Notes under the pieces: model-generated
Told to the model about the DNA's origin: nothing
The model's database searches: none
Seen by the model: only the letters and a program-made list of their open reading frames with translations
Assembly (NCBI RefSeq): GCF_038025025.1
Contig: NW_027117345.1
Span: 248,001-312,000, forward strand
Source of the DNA: Phyllosticta citribraziliensis
Lineage: Eukaryota
DNA length: 64,000 bases
Direction: 5' to 3'
Made by a program: the position numbers and the translations under genes
Part shown: positions 28,023 to 39,200 of the stretch, one piece after another
Layout: each line of letters begins with the position of its first letter
How positions within the stretch are numbered: the first letter of the stretch is position 1

Positions 28023-29322
28023 TCAAAAAACATCATCCATATTGACATCGCCGCCAACAGCACCAGCACCAGCCACGGCGGCGGCCGCCGCCCCCTGCGT
28101 CGCCACCTCTGGCGCCTCAGTCGCCGCCAGCTCATCCTGCACGAACACGGTGAAGCCGGCAAACGCGTCGCACAGCGCGCGCGAGTAGTACTCTCTGAAG
28201 TCATACCCGCCGGCGACGGCCGCCGGGACGGCCTTGGCGAAGTTGTCCAGGAAGTCCCAGTCGTAGCGGTCCTTGAGCACCGTGAACTGGCGCGCGTCCG
28301 TGTCGCCGTCGAAGGGGTCGAATGGCTTCTCCGGTTCCTTGGGGAGGCGTTTCTTGAGGCCCTTGATCTGGAAGCCGGGGGCGCCGTTGGACGGGGGCGC
28401 GGAGGCCGCGTTGGCAGAGGGGCGGGACGACGCCGCCGTCGCCGAGGGCGGCATGGGCGAGGAGCCTGACGCCCGCGTCGCCATGGCGCGCTTGAGATGC
28501 ACCTGTGTGATCTTGTTTGCGTCGCCCTGGCCCGACGCCAGCTGGTTGAGCACGTCGCGCCGGCCCTCGAGGCGCTCGCGCGCCAGGGCCTCGTCTTCGC
28601 GCACGGCGGCCTCGCGGCGCAGTCTTGTTTGCTCCTTTTCTTCGGCTTGTGCCGCTTCCCATGCGCTGGCCTCTTCTTCGGCGAGCGACGCGTTTTCCTT
28701 GATCGAGCCCGCGTTGGACTCGGCGTACTGGCGCAGCTTGGCCTCGGCGGCTTCGACGTTGATGCGGTAGATCAGGTCGTACGTCACGTCTTCGACGTCG
28801 TTGAGGTAGTTGTTGTAGTCCTGGACGGACTCGAATTCGTCCTCTCGCCGGTTGAAGCTGCGCAAAGTTAGGATTATGGCTTTGTTTGAGAGGGCGTGGC
28901 GAGGCTCACACTGCAGCCACTCGCCGCCGAATGTCGACTTCTCTTTCAATCTCCACATCTTCAAACGTCTTTTTCCTGAACCGATTCTTCCGCAGCGTCT
29001 TGCTGCAGCCCGCGACTCTACACGGGGCCGGGCCATGCGAGTATATCCGATCGACGCAGCTCTCGCACATCTGGTGGTAGCACTCGGGATTGATGAGGAA
29101 GCGCATGTTTGGATTGAGGTAGCGAGACGACTTGCACACGGGGCAAATGTCTATATCATCAACAAACTGGTTAGCAGGGGGAACTTCGTCGTCATCAACG
29201 GAGAGAGCTTCTTGAAGGCGCAAGCTGGAGAGGTGGGCTTGGAGGAGCTGAAGCTCACCGCCGTCCTCAACCGGTCCTTTGACAGCCGTCGCACCGCTCT
29301 CGCGACGCGCTGCTCGAGACAT
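28023..29322 (-). CDS. TFB3: CDK-activating kinase assembly factor MAT1 / TFIIH subunit Tfb3; two introns
   Basis: RING DICPVCKSSRYLNPNMRFLINPECYHQMCESCVDRIY...CRVAGC, then FEDVEIEREVDIRRRV / FNRREDEF...YNNYLNDVED and the C-terminal AGGY...YYSRAL.DAF. Confidence 0.95.
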
Positions 29323-29568
29323 TGTTGAGGGAGTTATGTGAAGCAGGAGGACCGCGAGGGTCGTGCGGTCTGGGGTCCGAGTCGGGTGGGAGTCGATGTG
29401 CGGTGTGAAGTGGAGCTCCAACGTCGGGAGTGGAGGTGCACTTTGGCGGAGCGCGGGTGGCGTCAGCCAAGCCGCAGTCCGCTCGGTCTTCCGCCGTCAG
29501 TTTTTCGCGACCATACTTCCGTCACTCTGACTCTTTACGCGCTCTCTCTTCACACATCGCCAAACAAA

Positions 29569-31671
29569 ATGGCTCAGACAGCCCCGATGAGCGCAGAGTC
29601 CCGCAACCATCTCAGCGACCTCGAGCGCCAACGTTTGCGCCTCGAAGATCAACTGGAACAGCTCCGCAAGTCACTTCGACACTGGCAAACGTGGGACGCC
29701 GAATATGAAGGGCTGAAGGAAGAGATCCAGGCGCTTCAAGAGAAGGACAATGGCGAGCCATCTGCGGACCAAATTCTGGCGGCCGGCCGCGAATTTGACG
29801 GCGAACTAGTCAACGAAAAGGAAATCCGCGAACTGCTCGGAACCAACCAACAGCGCACCGCCGGACAAGTGATTGACGTTATTAGTCGGCGCCAGGAATA
29901 CGTGCAGCAAAATGTCGCGACCGTGCAAAAGCAGGTGGAGGCCACCGAGGACCGGCTGAACAAGGTCCTCATCATCAGCAGTCCGAGCTTGCAGGACGAG
30001 GAAGGCGGGCCGTTGATGGACATACGAGAGGAGCTGGATGAAGAAGGCAACGTGCTCACGAGCTCGATTCACAAGGCGGGAGAGTCAGCACCTAGAATTG
30101 TCGAGGCACTACGAAAAGCTGGAATCACGGATTTGCAGGGAGACGAGAACAAGCAAACGGGAGATGAGAAAGAGGATGCAGGCAAAGATGCAGACAAGGG
30201 CAAGAGCCGCGCCACACCATGGGAACCAGCACCGCCGCCATCAGACAAAATCCACATCGACCTCAGCAAACTAGCAGAGGCGGACGGGTCGAGCAAGCCC
30301 TTCGGAGACGCCTCGACTCAGCCATCACCAACAGGCGAGGAGCCGCGGAGAAAAAAGTCGGTCACCTTCACACCAGACACCAAACCGCCAGCAGAAGAGA
30401 AACCCGCCCCTCCCAAGCCCGCAGCAGCAGCTCCCGAACCCGTCAAAGCAAAGAGTCCGCTCTCGTCGTACGCCAACTTCAAGCCGGGCAGCCGCATCGT
30501 CGAGCTCGACGACGACGACCGCGTCGTCAACGCCGAGCGCGCCGGCGTCGTCGCCCCCGTCATCCCGGACAACGAAACGCCCGAGGAAGCGGCGCTGCGG
30601 CGCGAGATGCTCGAGTACAGCCTCAACGAAGTGGGCAGCGTAGTCGCCGAGCTCGACCTGTACGACGGCACGGACGACGACGACGAGGAGGAATGGGAGG
30701 ACGAAGCAGACGACGACTTTGCGGAGGACGATGAAGACGAGGAGATGGAGGAAGACGAATGGGGTCGCAGCCGGCCCAGCGTATCTGCCGACTACGTCGC
30801 CAAGATGCGCGAGCTGGAGGAGAAGCTGAACGCGCGCATGATGGAAAACGTGGGCCCAGTCGAACCGGCCGACGCCGACGTCAACGAGGTGCTGCAGCAG
30901 GCGCAGGGCTTCCACCGGCTGCGCGTGCAAACAGACGAGCAGATCCCGCCGGCGCTGCTGCCCAGAGCGCCGTCGCAGACGCAACGGCACGATTCGCCGC
31001 TGCAGAGTACGCCGACGACGACGACGCTCTCGCCGACGACGGAGAAGAAGGTCACGTTTGCGGATGAGGTGGATGTTGCGCCGACGACGTCTGCTGTGGC
31101 TGCGGGCGATTCTGATACTGGTTCGAAATCGGCATCGTCACCACCACCATCGCAACCAGCTGTCACGCCCGTCTCCGACGCGGTCATCGAGCGCAGCACT
31201 TCTTCCTCTACACCACAACAGCCGCAGCAAGAACCCACCACGACGACCAAAAAGCGGCCCTCGCGCTTCAAATCATCTCGCGCCGCCACACCCACGACAC
31301 CCACCACGCCCACACCACCAACGCACGCCACAATCGCCTCCACAATCCTCGAACGACCATCCACCACCACCACCACCACCACCACCACCAACGACGACGA
31401 AGACGACGCTGCCCTCTCCCCGCAAACCCTCTCCACAGAGCTAATGACGCAGTACCACCGCGCGCGCAACACGCACATCAGCAAGCAGCCGGGCGGATTC
31501 ATGGCGCGCGAGGGCGAGGCGACGGGCGGCGTCGTCGGCGCGGATGGCAGCGGCGCGGACGCGGGGGATTTGGTCGAGGAGATGGGCGACGGGAGCGTGA
31601 GGCGGGTGAGTCGGTTTAAGGCGGCGAGGGTTCGGGGGGTGTCGGGGGAGCATGGGCAGGGTGGGGCGTAA
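29569..31671 (+). CDS. BUD27: Unconventional prefoldin RPB5-interactor (Bud27/URI)-like protein
   Basis: N-terminal prefoldin-like coiled coil (SLRHWQTWDAEYEGLKEEI...VISRRQEYVQQNV), PLMDIREELDEEGNV, acidic tract, KKVTF motifs and the C-terminal SRFK boxes (KKRPSRFKSSR, RRVSRFKAAR). Single exon. Confidence 0.75.
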   Translation: MAQTAPMSAESRNHLSDLERQRLRLEDQLEQLRKSLRHWQTWDAEYEGLKEEIQALQEKDNGEPSADQILAAGREFDGELVNEKEIRELLGTNQQRTAGQVIDVISRRQEYVQQNVATVQKQVEATEDRLNKVLIISSPSLQDEEGGPLMDIREELDEEGNVLTSSIHKAGESAPRIVEALRKAGITDLQGDENKQTGDEKEDAGKDADKGKSRATPWEPAPPPSDKIHIDLSKLAEADGSSKPFGDASTQPSPTGEEPRRKKSVTFTPDTKPPAEEKPAPPKPAAAAPEPVKAKSPLSSYANFKPGSRIVELDDDDRVVNAERAGVVAPVIPDNETPEEAALRREMLEYSLNEVGSVVAELDLYDGTDDDDEEEWEDEADDDFAEDDEDEEMEEDEWGRSRPSVSADYVAKMRELEEKLNARMMENVGPVEPADADVNEVLQQAQGFHRLRVQTDEQIPPALLPRAPSQTQRHDSPLQSTPTTTTLSPTTEKKVTFADEVDVAPTTSAVAAGDSDTGSKSASSPPPSQPAVTPVSDAVIERSTSSSTPQQPQQEPTTTTKKRPSRFKSSRAATPTTPTTPTPPTHATIASTILERPSTTTTTTTTTNDDEDDAALSPQTLSTELMTQYHRARNTHISKQPGGFMAREGEATGGVVGADGSGADAGDLVEEMGDGSVRRVSRFKAARVRGVSGEHGQGGA

Positions 31672-32209: not shown

Positions 32210-32460
32210 CGCCTGCCTGCGCCTGCGCTCCTCCGCTTCGTCCAACCAATGTGGTACGTAGGGTAGTCAAACAAGTAACACCGAGTACGCTCGCTCTGCT
32301 CGCAGGATATATCAGCTTGAATCCAACCAAGGTGTAACTGCCCAATCAATTTTGCAAAGCCCAAACGAAAACGAAAACGAAACAATGACAACCGGTAAAG
32401 ATCAGACGGGACGAGAGAGAGAGACGAGGCGTGACAGACTGACAGACTGACAACGAGCCG

Positions 32461-34305
32461 TCAATTCAGCACCTTGGTCCGCATCCACTCGCTCGTGCCG
32501 ACGCCCAGATTGAGGCCGTTGCGCGCCCACCAGCGGCGGACCTCGTCGCCCTTGGCGCCCTCGACGCCGTCCTCGAGCGCCTCCTCGATGTCGCACGTCT
32601 TGTACTCGACGCGCAGGCCGCTGCGCTTCCACCACTCGAGCACGTCGCGGTGGCCCATCTTGGTCGCGCCGACGAGCACCTGGTTGTCGTAGATCATCTT
32701 CTCGCCGTGCAGCGACGCCCAGAAGGAGAGGATGGACACGTGCCCGTGAGTCGAGGCGAGCTTGGCGACTGTGTCTTCGTGGCTGAAGGGGATGCTCGAT
32801 GTGACCCACCAGCGCAGAGTCGAGAGGGAGCCGGCCTGCGTCGCAAAGGCGATGGACTTGCCGGGTTTGAGGCGGAGCGGTCGACGCGTATTTGAGAGGG
32901 CAGTGGCAGCAGCGAGTGTGCAAGATGATGACGAGGCGCTAGTCGGGGGCAGGCGGTGACGAGGAGCCACAGAGCTTGCGCGACTGGCTGGTGTGCTGGC
33001 CGTATCACTCTCCGAATCGTCGCCCGACTCTCTGGTGGTGAGGGGTCGCCGGTCCGGACCACGCATGCTGGCCTGCTTCCACCATTCGAGCACTTCAATT
33101 TGGCCCTGCGAGCTGGCTTGCTCAAGAGCCGCCTCAGTGTATTTTGGCGGCAAACCAGAATTGCGCCACCATTCAAGCACGTGCACGAAGCCTGCGCGGC
33201 TGGCACCGTCAATTGCGTCGACCGTGTATTCCTTGTTCAAAAAGGTCGGCGACGTACGCCAATAATCCAGGAGCTCGACGCGTCCGAAAACAGCCGAGGC
33301 TTTGTCAGGCAGGAATGCGTGGCCAAAGGTGGCCCAGAAGAGGTCCTTGTGGTGGGTCTCGAGGTACGAGAGAAGCGGGACCATGGCGAAGCGCATGATG
33401 ATGCGTATGGCCTGGCGTGACAGCCATGATGGCGCGGGGTTGTTGTCGAAGAGGGATCTGATGTCATCGAGGTTGCCCGAGAGAATGGCCCACTCGAGCT
33501 TCTCCATAAATGTTTGCGGACCCTCGTTGCTAGTGTGGCGTGACCATAGCGGGGGTGTCGGCAGAGTGGTGTAAACGTCGAGGGCGCGTGCGAGCTCCCA
33601 GTCGCCGGCAAAGTCTAGGATCATGGACCAAATTTCGGGAGGCAGCGTTCGCGCTGTCTTGGTCGTCGAAGCCAAGGACATGTTGGGCTTTGGGGAGTGT
33701 CCCAGGGGGAGGGTCAAGTCTTGACCAAGAGACATGAGGTCCAGCTGGTTCTGGATGGCGCCCATGAGTTCATGTTTGCCCTCCCACGAAATGAACCGCT
33801 TGCCGGGGCCAGGATCAAACGTCCACAGCAGCGGTTGCAGCACCCGCATCCAGTTCCACTTGCGTCTTATCTTGCTGAGCTGCTTCTTTGTCATGGGGTT
33901 TTCCCACATCAAGGTAGACATGGCCAATACCAGCAGGGTGCGCTTAGACACGTCCCAGCCGCGCAAGACTTCGAGGATCAGATTATCAGTCATGCCGTGT
34001 AGCATCTTGGCGAGGGTGTTGGCATCGACGGGAGCGAGGACGAGCATATCGGCCCATGCGCAGAGCTCGACGGCGGCCTGGGCGACGTGGTCATGGCTGG
34101 CAAAGGGCGAACAGGGGCGAGAAGGGTCGGTTGAGACATTGACGAGGGAGGTTGTTTGCGGAGAGCGGAGAGGAGGGTTGACGATTGATCGGACGGCAAT
34201 GTTGTCGCGTGTGGAGAGGGTGTGGAGGAAGGGGTCGAGGATGGGCGAAGAGACGGTCGAGGCGACGAGGATGCGCAGAGCACGCGAGCTCTCTGGCGGA
34301 GGCAT
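32461..34305 (-). CDS. HFCD/PPC-decarboxylase-like flavoprotein domain + F-box-like motif + ankyrin-like repeats
   Basis: ELCAWADMLVLAPVDANTLAKMLHGMTDNL...RGWD...AMSTLMWENPMT (Hal3/CoaC fold), LPPEIWSMILDF (F-box-like), and about six A-x-x-x-G-x-x-x-x-L-x-W-W repeats. Intronless ORF; start taken at MPPPESS (34305). Confidence 0.85.
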   Translation of the reverse strand: MPPPESSRALRILVASTVSSPILDPFLHTLSTRDNIAVRSIVNPPLRSPQTTSLVNVSTDPSRPCSPFASHDHVAQAAVELCAWADMLVLAPVDANTLAKMLHGMTDNLILEVLRGWDVSKRTLLVLAMSTLMWENPMTKKQLSKIRRKWNWMRVLQPLLWTFDPGPGKRFISWEGKHELMGAIQNQLDLMSLGQDLTLPLGHSPKPNMSLASTTKTARTLPPEIWSMILDFAGDWELARALDVYTTLPTPPLWSRHTSNEGPQTFMEKLEWAILSGNLDDIRSLFDNNPAPSWLSRQAIRIIMRFAMVPLLSYLETHHKDLFWATFGHAFLPDKASAVFGRVELLDYWRTSPTFLNKEYTVDAIDGASRAGFVHVLEWWRNSGLPPKYTEAALEQASSQGQIEVLEWWKQASMRGPDRRPLTTRESGDDSESDTASTPASRASSVAPRHRLPPTSASSSSCTLAAATALSNTRRPLRLKPGKSIAFATQAGSLSTLRWWVTSSIPFSHEDTVAKLASTHGHVSILSFWASLHGEKMIYDNQVLVGATKMGHRDVLEWWKRSGLRVEYKTCDIEEALEDGVEGAKGDEVRRWWARNGLNLGVGTSEWMRTKVLN

Positions 34306-36220: not shown

Positions 36221-39200
36221 ATGTCTCAGCAACTAGACGACGAGGCACAGGAACTGCGGCCGTTTACCCAGGATGCCGACTCTTCTGCATCGCAACGCGA
36301 TTCCTCTCCATCGCGCGCAAGGACGCGCATCATTACCGACGGCCCCGCATTTCGAAACAAGTCGCCTGGAAACTTGCAGCCTCATAATTCTTTCTTCTCC
36401 CCAACCTCGGACACAAATTCCCTGAGCCCCAATGTCGAAGATCGCGTCTTTCCCATTCGGAGTGTGGTGTCTGTGGACCCGACCCCGACTGCATCGGCCT
36501 GCCGAGATAGACAGGAGGGATACTTCTACCATTCAGCGGCACAGGCCCGAGCCAGAGATGGTCGCCGGGAATCTGTAAACAGCGCATCCTCTGCTGCTTC
36601 CGACTACCGTTCGTCGGGGAAATCACGACAGGAAGGCCAGCCGGTACCAACGACGCCCAAAATGCGAAGAGGCTTGTCCAACGAGCGGTTCGATTACAGG
36701 CAAGCACCGCAAACTTTCAACGACATTGTTTCCTCCAAAAGCGGGACCGACAGCGCCATGAATTCGGTACACTCTAGCGATATGCCAGGATCGCCCGCCC
36801 CGAGCTCCACCAGAAGTGTTGCAGAGAGCCTACCGGATCCGCCACTCGTCACAGCCCGCTTCAAGCACGTCGTCACCGAAGGAGGCCATGCCGTCATCAC
36901 TGGCAGGGGCGGCGAGATGTTGCAACGATGTGAAGACGAGCCAATCCACATACCGGGAGCCGTCCAAGGTTTCGGCGTGCTGGTTGCACTGGAAGAAGAA
37001 TCGGACGGGAAGCTCGTCGTTCGCATCGTCAGCGAGAATTCGAAAAGACTGTTGGGCTACTCGCCAGGAGCGCTGTTCGCCCTAGATAACTTTTGCGACA
37101 TTCTTTCCGAGGAACAAGCCGACAATTTGATAGATCACATTGACTTCATACGGGACGAGGATGCCGACGTCGCCACGAATGGACCAGAAGTCTTTACCCT
37201 GACCATCCGCAGTCCAGAGAAGAAGCCCCGCAAGTTTTGGTGTGCAATGCACGTCAGCCAGGCCAATCCAAACCTGGTCATCTGCGAATTCGAGCTGGAG
37301 GACGATCCAGTCAATCCGCTGGTGCCAACAAACGACGCGACGCCCGAGCTGCCCGAAGATACTCTGCAGAGCAATCCCACAGCGGAAGAGTATGCCGAAA
37401 GCACGCAAAACTTTAGTCGGCCGCTGAGGGTATTGCGCAGCGCAAGAAAGCGCAAGGGTGAAGCTGCAGCCATGGAGGTTTTCAACATCATGTCCCAAGT
37501 GCAGGAGCAGCTTGCAACGGCACCAAATCTCGAAAAGTTTCTCAAAGTGCTCGTTGGCGTCGTCAAGGAGCTGACGGGCTTTCATCGCGTCATGGTGTAC
37601 CAATTCGACACGCAATGGAACGGCCGCGTCGTGACGGAGCTCGTAGACCCTCGAGCGACGAAGGATCTTTACAAAGGACTCAACTTCCCCGCGTCCGACA
37701 TTCCAAAACAGGCACGGGAGTTGTACAAGATCAACAGGGTGCGAATGCTTTACGATCGAGATCAAGAGACTGCTCGTCTGGTCTGCCGGACCGTGGAAGA
37801 CTTGGAGACCCCACTTGACCTATCTTATTCCTACCTTCGCGCAATGTCGCCAATCCACCTCAAATACCTCAAAAACATGGCGGTTCGCTCATCCATGTCC
37901 ATTTCCATCAACGCCTTTGACGAGCTGTGGGGTTTGATTGCCTGTCACACGTACGGTCCAAAAGGCATGCGAGTCTCGTTTCCGATTCGCAAGATGTGTC
38001 GCCTGGTGGGCGATTCGGCCTCGAGGAATATTGAGCGGCTGTCGTATGCGTCGAGGTTGCAAGCGAGAAAACTGATCAACACGGTTCCGACTAGGCACAA
38101 TCCCTCTGGATACATTGTTGCATCCTCGGAAGATTTACTCAAGCTTTTCGATGCCGACTTTGGACTGTTGTCAATCAGAGACGAGACTAAGATCCTTGGC
38201 CAGTTGGAGCAGTCGCAAGAAGCGCTTGCAATGCTCGAGTACTTGCGCATGCGGAAAATCACGTCAGTCATGACTTCCCAGGACATTGCAATCGACTTTC
38301 CGGATCTTCGATATCCGCCGGGCTTCCAAGTCATTGCTGGCATGCTCGTCGTGCCGCTGTCGGTATCAGGCAATGATTTCATCGTCTTCTTCAGAAAAGG
38401 GCAGCTCAAAGAAGTCAAATGGGCAGGCAATCCCTATGAAAAGTTTGTCAAGGAAGGCACTGAAGGATATCTCGAGCCACGAAAGAGTTTCAAGACGTGG
38501 TGTGAGACGGTTGTGGGCAAATGCAGAGAATGGACCGAGGAAGAGATTGAGACGGCTGCGGTCCTCTGTCTTGTGTACGGGAAGTTTATCGAGGTCTGGC
38601 GGCAGAAAGAGGCAGCCTTGCAGAGCAGCCAGCTGACGCGACTCTTGTTGGCCAACTCTGCCCACGAAGTCCGGACGCCTTTAAATGCCATCATCAATTA
38701 CCTTGAGATTGCCCTCGAAGGCACCCTGGACCACGAAACGCGCGAAAATCTGGCCAAATCGCATTCTGCGTCCAAGTCGCTAATTTACGTCATCAATGAC
38801 CTTTTGGATCTCACCAAGACTGAGGAAGGTGGGCCACTGATCCGAGGAGAGGTTTTCGACTTGAAGGAGACTTTTGCCGAGGCGGCCGACATGTTTGCCG
38901 GCGACGCAAGGCGCAAGAAAATCTCGTACGATGTTGTGGAGCACCCCGGCGTGCCCCAGAAGGTCTTGGGCGACCAGCGCAGGGTGCGGCAGGCCATCTC
39001 TAACGTCACGGCCAATGCAATCCAAAACACATCGAGCGGGGGCGTCAAGGTGGATATGTATGCTTCTACGCAAAAACTGCTAACGGGGCGGTGGCTAATT
39101 AAGCTTACAGGTACGTGTCCAGCTGGGAGGACAATCACGTCAACGTCGAGGTAGCCGTCGCCGACACGGGCGCGGGAATGAGCAGTAAAAAGCTCGATGC

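Follow-up and report, generated by a model that had tools for sequence, protein, structure and literature searches.

The closest described relatives of the protein reported here are the PPC decarboxylases (PPCDC) and Hal3 proteins (AtHal3a, 1e20/1mvn; human, 1qzu; Cryptococcus, 6eoa; PF02441), which have the same HFCD Rossmann fold and share with it the core WAD..LAP.DAN.L.KM..G..DNL. PPCDC requires His90, Asn142 with Met145, and Cys175, and the yeast proteins Hal3, Vhs3, and Cab3 are likewise fungal PPCDC paralogues that lost catalytic residues and took on regulatory roles (PMC9604783); each of them keeps a half-site, which gives an active heterotrimer. The Ppz1 inhibitors Hal3 and Vhs3 of Saccharomycotina have a long N-terminal extension with the motif BBxxxVTF and a C-terminal tail that is acidic. 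In plants, ZTL, FKF1, and LKP2 combine a LOV domain, which has a PAS fold, a photoactive Cys, and proven FMN, with an F-box and Kelch repeats. Giant viruses and chytrids have F-box and ankyrin proteins with short ankyrin repeats ending in WW, and the ANK/PRANC proteins of poxviruses have two-helix F-boxes, which bind Skp1 and in which helix 3 is dispensable (PMC4353913).

The locus studied here, in a window of 64,000 nucleotides of Phyllosticta citribraziliensis contig NW_027117345.1 (the whole stretch of DNA analyzed, positions 248,001 to 312,000), joins elements of these systems in one protein. A stop-free open reading frame of one exon (32461..34305; this and all features of the protein lie on the minus strand) encodes 614 residues with a pseudo-PPCDC domain, an F-box-like motif, and ankyrin repeats. 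The gene has no intron and is present in a single copy in the genome. Unlike the PPC decarboxylases and Hal3, the protein has no equivalents of His90, Asn142, and Cys175, the loop that carries the His is deleted, and the GSVA motif has decayed, whereas a basic patch and the F-box-like and ankyrin modules have been added. In contrast to yeast Hal3, Vhs3, and Cab3, it keeps no half-site and has no acidic tail, and its genome also has a self-sufficient PPCDC gene. The viral and chytrid F-box and ankyrin proteins form expanded families, whereas this is a single-copy cellular gene with a fixed C-terminal signature and a pseudo-enzyme N-terminus; its two-helix F-box-like motif precedes the repeats, while that of the poxvirus proteins is C-terminal. 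The order of flavoprotein-type domain, F-box, and repeats is shared with ZTL, FKF1, and LKP2, but the fusion protein has HFCD instead of LOV, ankyrin instead of Kelch, and a doubtful flavin, and homology to them was not found. Receptors with F-box and ankyrin repeats were known already, as were half-dead paralogues of Hal3, and what appears to be new is their fusion in one family. The literature searched, outside which most subscription papers lie, gave no description of the fusion or of the family, and a review of Hal3 mentions two related Neurospora crassa genes and describes no such fusion.

Among 8000 scored candidates, 1166 were homologues of the fusion protein, and the best match was a protein of Phyllosticta citrichinensis with 97% identity. 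Databases name these homologues flavoprotein, “related to SIS2,” or “putative phosphopantothenoylcysteine decarboxylase.” The relatives in metagenomes had a single open frame in all 15 loci examined of the 17 fetched. In addition, two contigs of a relative with about 91% identity spanned 32422-34239 and 32422-34210 with no joint inside the coding sequence; they came from two runs of one study, presumed to be RNA-seq, and are not strict proof of transcription; runs whose word share was small were set aside. The single frames in relatives and the unjointed contigs indicated that the fusion is not an artefact of assembly or gene calling.

A phytochrome gene (PAS_2, GAF, PHY, HisKA; 36221-39154, plus strand, running past the listed end) is the upstream neighbor of the fusion gene and is transcribed divergently from it, with about 1.9 kb between them. 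The same head-to-head pair was found in two of the 17 fetched loci (L038 and L040, probably one lineage), and in Sordariomycete-type loci the fusion gene had other neighbors. The other flank is occupied by a BUD27/URI-like prefoldin gene (Prefoldin_3, DUF3835; 29569-31671, plus strand), and further left a MAT1/TFB3 RING gene (28023-29496, minus strand) stands head to head with it; both are housekeeping genes.

The N-terminal domain (residues 9-193; 33727..34281) was identified by Pfam and by structure alignment. The Pfam Flavoprotein model (PF02441) matched residues 77-152 above the cut-off (E 3.9e-11), and the best solved relatives were human PPCDC (E 4.9e-16) and AtHal3a (E 1.1e-15). In the AlphaFold model of the whole protein (pLDDT 77.8), the domain aligned with structures of Hal3 and PPCDC over its whole length with Z values of 16-17.5, the best being Cryptococcus Hal3 (6eoa; Z 17.5, rmsd 2.8, 166 residues). 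Pfam and structure alignment therefore confirm the HFCD scaffold proposed in the original prediction, and the altered motifs that it listed, AAVELCAWAD, AMSTLMW, and a missing CGD, are all present in the sequence.

At the site of the catalytic His (AtHal3a His90) the protein has A78 (34072..34074), and a helix replaces the preceding W..W..LH loop. This loop was deleted in all 135 aligned relatives, and none of the 166 relatives that could be matched, with 9 of 175 unmatched, had the His. The motif PxMNxxMW reads LAMSTLMW (33904..33927), with Ser130 in the position of Asn142; the 135 aligned proteins have Ser (131), Thr (3), or Asp (1) there and never Asn, and in the wider set Asn was found in 0 of 159 matched proteins (16 unmatched). 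The IACGD substrate clamp with Cys175 is replaced by an LWTFDP hairpin (33811..33828), as seen in the alignment and the model. CGD was absent from the clamp in 121 of 121 relatives, and a CG dipeptide of any kind occurred in the clamp region in 1 of 175. The domain has retained PxDAN (PLDANT in human PPCDC), M129, and W134. It also has a basic patch, KKQLSKIRRKWNW (residues 140-152; 33850..33888), with K or R in 116-131 of 135 relatives at six positions; its consensus KKQLxKIRRKWNW is conserved in the relatives and mostly missing from the canonical PPCDC of the genome.

That canonical enzyme (L002) is one of three PF02441 matches in the genome, together with the fusion gene and a Pad1/UbiX-like gene, and all three of its catalytic residues are present. 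It aligned with the HFCD domain at 35% identity over 144 columns (E 1e-20), and the domain is therefore most simply explained as a fused duplicate of PPCDC. With His, Asn, and Cys lost throughout the family and PPCDC made elsewhere in the genome, the assignment of the domain as a pseudo-enzyme, already suggested by the original prediction, is supported at the level of sequence, and the fusion protein is predicted not to make CoA. That it is an active PPCDC or a Ppz1 inhibitor of the SIS2/Hal3 type, as the database names suggest, is largely refuted and highly improbable, since all three catalytic residues are lost beside a canonical enzyme in the genome, and since the protein has neither an acidic tail nor a long N-terminal extension, its HFCD domain starting at residue 9. 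The names in use for this family across filamentous fungi are thus wrong as to enzyme function. The stand-alone PPCDC gene (L002, 1417-2175, G000:C11) has a 22-residue insertion after RAWD and adjoins a monothiol-glutaredoxin-like gene. The third match (L001, 1441-2409, G000:C2) encodes what we take, from its motifs, to be a Pad1/UbiX-like flavin prenyltransferase whose N-terminal extension is long. Another protein, P0309 (739 aa), has four tandem Hal3-like domains, several of which are without the catalytic His, Asn, or Cys.

The GSVA motif and the Trp loop are FMN contacts in this fold. In the fusion family, conservation was 0.30 in residues 9-75 versus 0.67 in residues 76-162. The ASGSVA motif reads ASTVSS in the protein of P. 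citribraziliensis, in which both the Gly and the Cys of the motif are absent, ASTGCT in many relatives, and ANGP in Sordariomycete-type relatives. The original prediction had proposed flavin-regulated sensing comparable to that of ZTL. This is unsupported because the N-terminal FMN motifs lie where the domain is conserved least; in addition, the motif Gly is lost in P. citribraziliensis, the Trp/His loop is deleted, and the F-box/ankyrin module occurs without HFCD in basidiomycetes and Pezizomycetes. Bound flavin is probably dispensable for the role of the domain, as far as the sequences allow a judgment.

A more general form of this idea is that the protein is an SCF receptor switched by a ligand, in which the dead domain would bind FMN or an intermediate of the CoA pathway and control substrate capture or the stability of the receptor. 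The full HFCD fold, the retained PxDAN, M129, and W134, the GC that replaces GS in the first motif of many Dothideomycete relatives (Gly in 101 and Cys in 92 of 135), and the divergent phytochrome gene here and in two of the 17 fetched loci are consistent with it. However, the weakly conserved N-terminal half, the motif residues missing in P. citribraziliensis and replaced by ANGP elsewhere, the loop deleted in 135 of 135 relatives, and the 102 of 277 motif carriers with no HFCD domain make such a switch unlikely, as does ScCab3, which keeps the fold and binds no FMN alone (PMC6168597).

The helices alpha4 and alpha5 form much of the trimer interface of Hal3 (PMC6168597). The core that spans them is the well-conserved part of the HFCD domain (0.67), and G104, R115, and W117 are present in 135 of 135 relatives. 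The site of the AtHal3 trimer-core residue L117 is variable and often polar (H 56, M 14, D 14, I 7 of 135); in ScHal3, L405E disrupts the homotrimers (PMC6168597). Because the trimer-core helices are best kept, the domain is most likely a module for oligomerization or docking. The same evidence bears on the proposal that the dead domain enters trimers of canonical PPCDC, so that the receptor would ubiquitinate or poison the enzyme and tune CoA synthesis; the original prediction had likewise raised co-assembly with the decarboxylase. Its origin from a fungal PPCDC, its conserved interface helices, and the mixed Hal3/Vhs3/Cab3 trimers of yeast (PMC9604783) agree with this. Nevertheless, unlike Hal3 and Cab3, the domain gives no catalytic half-site, and supplementary files 1-12 of PMC9744329, among them every SkpA and CulA pull-down, contained no protein described as “phosphopantothenoyl...,” a weak negative that depends on annotation wording; we regard this proposal as quite improbable. 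Taken together, the readings in which the PPCDC copy serves an SCF ligase of filamentous ascomycetes as its head for sensing or targeting, through FMN, a CoA intermediate, or PPCDC trimers, and couples cofactor status to ubiquitin-dependent degradation form a doubtful but not negligible minority. A metabolite-gated HFCD F-box receptor of this kind may have arisen independently of plant ZTL/FKF1, and, if the dead domain binds a cofactor or PPCDC, the family would link CoA or flavin metabolism directly to protein degradation.

A disordered linker (residues 194-220; 33646..33726; pLDDT below 50 at 196-219, conservation 0.24) leads to the F-box-like motif LPPEIWSMILDFAGDWELARALDVYTTLPTPPLW (residues 221-254; 33544..33645), which was recognized by hhalign, conservation, and the model as helices 1 and 2 without helix 3. 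Its core LPPEIWSMILDF occupies residues 221-232 (33610-33645). When the family profile was aligned with 30 F-boxes of the same genome, hhalign gave a probability of 87% (E 4e-6, 25 columns); among 38 sliding windows, only the three that overlap the motif exceeded 5.1%, and all non-overlapping windows gave at most 5.1%. The hydrophobic register LPxEI..I(F/L)...L was kept (L1 P2 E4 I5 I9 L18 V24 L28), with L-P-x-E maintained from rusts to Dothideomycetes, and the motif was the most conserved segment of the family (0.70). It was found in 170 of 170 HFCD-bearing relatives of sufficient length; as the profile used to detect it was itself made from family members, this number demonstrates conservation and not F-box identity. 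Distant relatives gave sub-threshold matches to the Pfam F-box-like model in 3 of 27 cases (E 0.0007-0.095, model positions 2-23).

The Pfam F-box models (PF00646/PF12937) matched none of 31 close relatives, the motif was not among the 47 PF12937 matches of the genome, and none of the 31 matches that a sequence profile obtained in the PDB was an F-box entry. The fragment of residues 215-415 was modeled with high confidence (pLDDT 95.6, pTM 0.88; helices 223-233 and 236-241 at pLDDT of about 96), and the matches listed by its fold search, which barely covered fragment residues 1-38, included ankyrins but no F-box protein of solved structure. In both alignment and model, helix 3 (VCK/RxW) is absent and a Pro-rich strand, YTTLPTPPLW, takes its place; the invariant DWE of the motif is not an F-box hallmark. 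The F-box assignment of the original prediction is therefore upheld for helices 1 and 2 with their register and the profile match, but not for helix 3 or at the level of Pfam. Because the motif is rigidly seated on the ankyrin stack in the fragment model, it may be a structural cap. This placement, the missing helix 3, and the negative Pfam result in close relatives would suit a protein that is not part of an SCF complex, in which the LPxE helices only cap the ankyrin scaffold at its N-terminus, as what remains of an ancestral F-box, and which acts as a non-ligase adaptor. We consider this unlikely to a similar degree as the targeting of PPCDC, since an L-P-x-E motif kept across such distances as the most conserved segment argues against a relic, as does the F-box-like behavior of the probable orthologue AN1767 in pull-downs, described below.

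Downstream of the motif, two degenerate helix pairs together with three G..V.L.WW repeats make up the first ankyrin-like stack (residues 262-412; 33070..33522). It is followed by a lineage-specific low-complexity insert (residues 413-476; 32878..33069; conservation 0.11) and by three more ankyrin-like repeats recognized by the model and structure alignment (residues 477-562; 32620..32877). The insert is rich in Ser, Thr, and Ala, has about 60 residues, is longer than in most relatives, and was modeled with low confidence. The five repeats quoted in the original prediction were confirmed, and further ones were found, namely ASAVFGRVELLDYW (336-349) and the two degenerate helix pairs (266-318). 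In the fusion protein, Pfam Ank_4 remained below threshold (E 0.0057); of the 31 relatives aligned, 26 were matched by it at E<=10, the best at 5.3e-7. The modeled repeats aligned with ankyrin-1 over 253 residues (Z 15.2); structurally they were nearest to ankyrin proteins of giant viruses, and three named F-box proteins were among the 50 matches listed. The protein ends in a conserved cap, EYKTCDIEEALED...WW..NGLNL...EWM (32464..32619), which is a family signature across Dikarya.

A Flavoprotein domain presumably yields the database wording under which the Aspergillus nidulans protein AN1767 is described. AN1767 was found by predicting the wording and size of an orthologue and then searching the combined table of a study in which SkpA-GFP and CulA-GFP were pulled down (PMC9744329). 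In that table the predicted phrase occurred in nine rows belonging to three proteins, and the exact wording only in AN1767. Three SkpA-GFP replicates yielded 18, 23, and 25 unique peptides of AN1767, and two clean CulA-GFP rows 4 and 16 (PMC9744329); one further CulA row (3 peptides) was left out, since the size given in it is that of a protein of 122 aa. AN1767 was present in six of seven condition tables of this study and missing from its GFP-control files, its Fbx-bait file, and its list of 74 F-box proteins. We infer that such a pattern is more to be expected of an F-box protein than of a substrate recruited by one on the list.

The gene of AN1767 is intron-free and encodes 608 or 635 aa, and the length, mass per residue, and pI of the protein are inside the range of the family; the Atlas cluster nearest to an Onygenales member has a representative of 634 aa. 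The neighbors of AN1767 (an MFS transporter and a MET22-like gene) showed no synteny with the fusion-gene loci, none of the 17 loci from a metagenome scan was Aspergillus-like, a text search for AN1767 brought up unrelated papers alone, and no domain name for AN1767 was given in the 12 of 17 supplementary files covered of PMC6106085, PMC4364702, PMC2386489, and PMC2289846. AN1767 itself probably has a syntenic counterpart in Afu6g09100. Since AN1767 was picked by description and size and not by sequence, the orthology is circumstantial; even so, the match in description, size, and gene structure makes it highly likely. If AN1767 is the orthologue, a steady Skp1 partner in a model fungus has been missed by the list of 74 F-box proteins.

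The SCF receptor proposed in the original prediction thus gains support from a motif found across Dikarya, a profile match to F-boxes of the same genome, and a probable orthologue copurifying with Skp1 and Cul1, and for the fusion protein itself it remains a prediction. With all variants summed, an SCF role is very probable, an estimate that leans heavily on the putative orthologue AN1767; with that evidence set aside, the balance tips only slightly in its favor. We find it reasonably probable that the protein is an overlooked single-copy SCF substrate receptor in which a dead PPCDC is an oligomerizing or docking head. In such a receptor, the F-box-like motif would dock on Skp1, the concave ankyrin stack and conserved C-terminal cap would bind a substrate for ubiquitination, and the dead domain would oligomerize the protein or dock it. 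The genome has one Skp1/SconC gene (L004, G000:C9) of four exons, and in the half that binds F-boxes it is almost the same as Saccharata Skp1.

The distribution of the family was explored by a profile search that covered 1.84 billion representatives and by a second search with HFCD-less relatives as queries. The motif, the repeats, and the C-terminal signature were found together in Agaricomycetes, Pucciniomycotina, Pezizomycetes, and the Taphrinomycotina yeast Savitreella. Among 509 fetched proteins, 277 carried the motif, 175 of them with an HFCD domain, 67 with a SAP-like domain, 35 with neither, and none with both; the basidiomycete and Pezizomycete relatives had an N-terminal SAP domain, a GST-like domain, or none. 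On the tree of the shared module (50 rows), all 21 true HFCD rows formed one clade with support 100/100. This tree was midpoint-rooted, and the direction of HFCD gain therefore rests on the species tree. The species tree places the gain in the lineage after the split of the Pezizomycetes. Because of this distribution and the tree, we conclude that the receptor module is older than the pseudo-enzyme and exists without it. A clade including Dothideomycetes, Eurotiomycetes, and Leotiomycetes would then have fused a duplicate of its own PPCDC to the module, and catalysis would have been lost. As an accessory, the N-terminal module can be exchanged (SAP, GST-like, dead PPCDC, or none), and the family clearly illustrates how N-terminal domains are swapped, SAP or no domain versus a dead enzyme, while a single F-box/ankyrin module is conserved. 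In the rust relatives P0315, P0483, P0484, and P0462, the GST-like N-terminus on the F-box-like/ankyrin module, which would be a second fusion with an enzyme fold, is either real or a gene-model join. When a Rhodotorula relative was used as the query, the fusion gene was the only match in the P. citribraziliensis genome.
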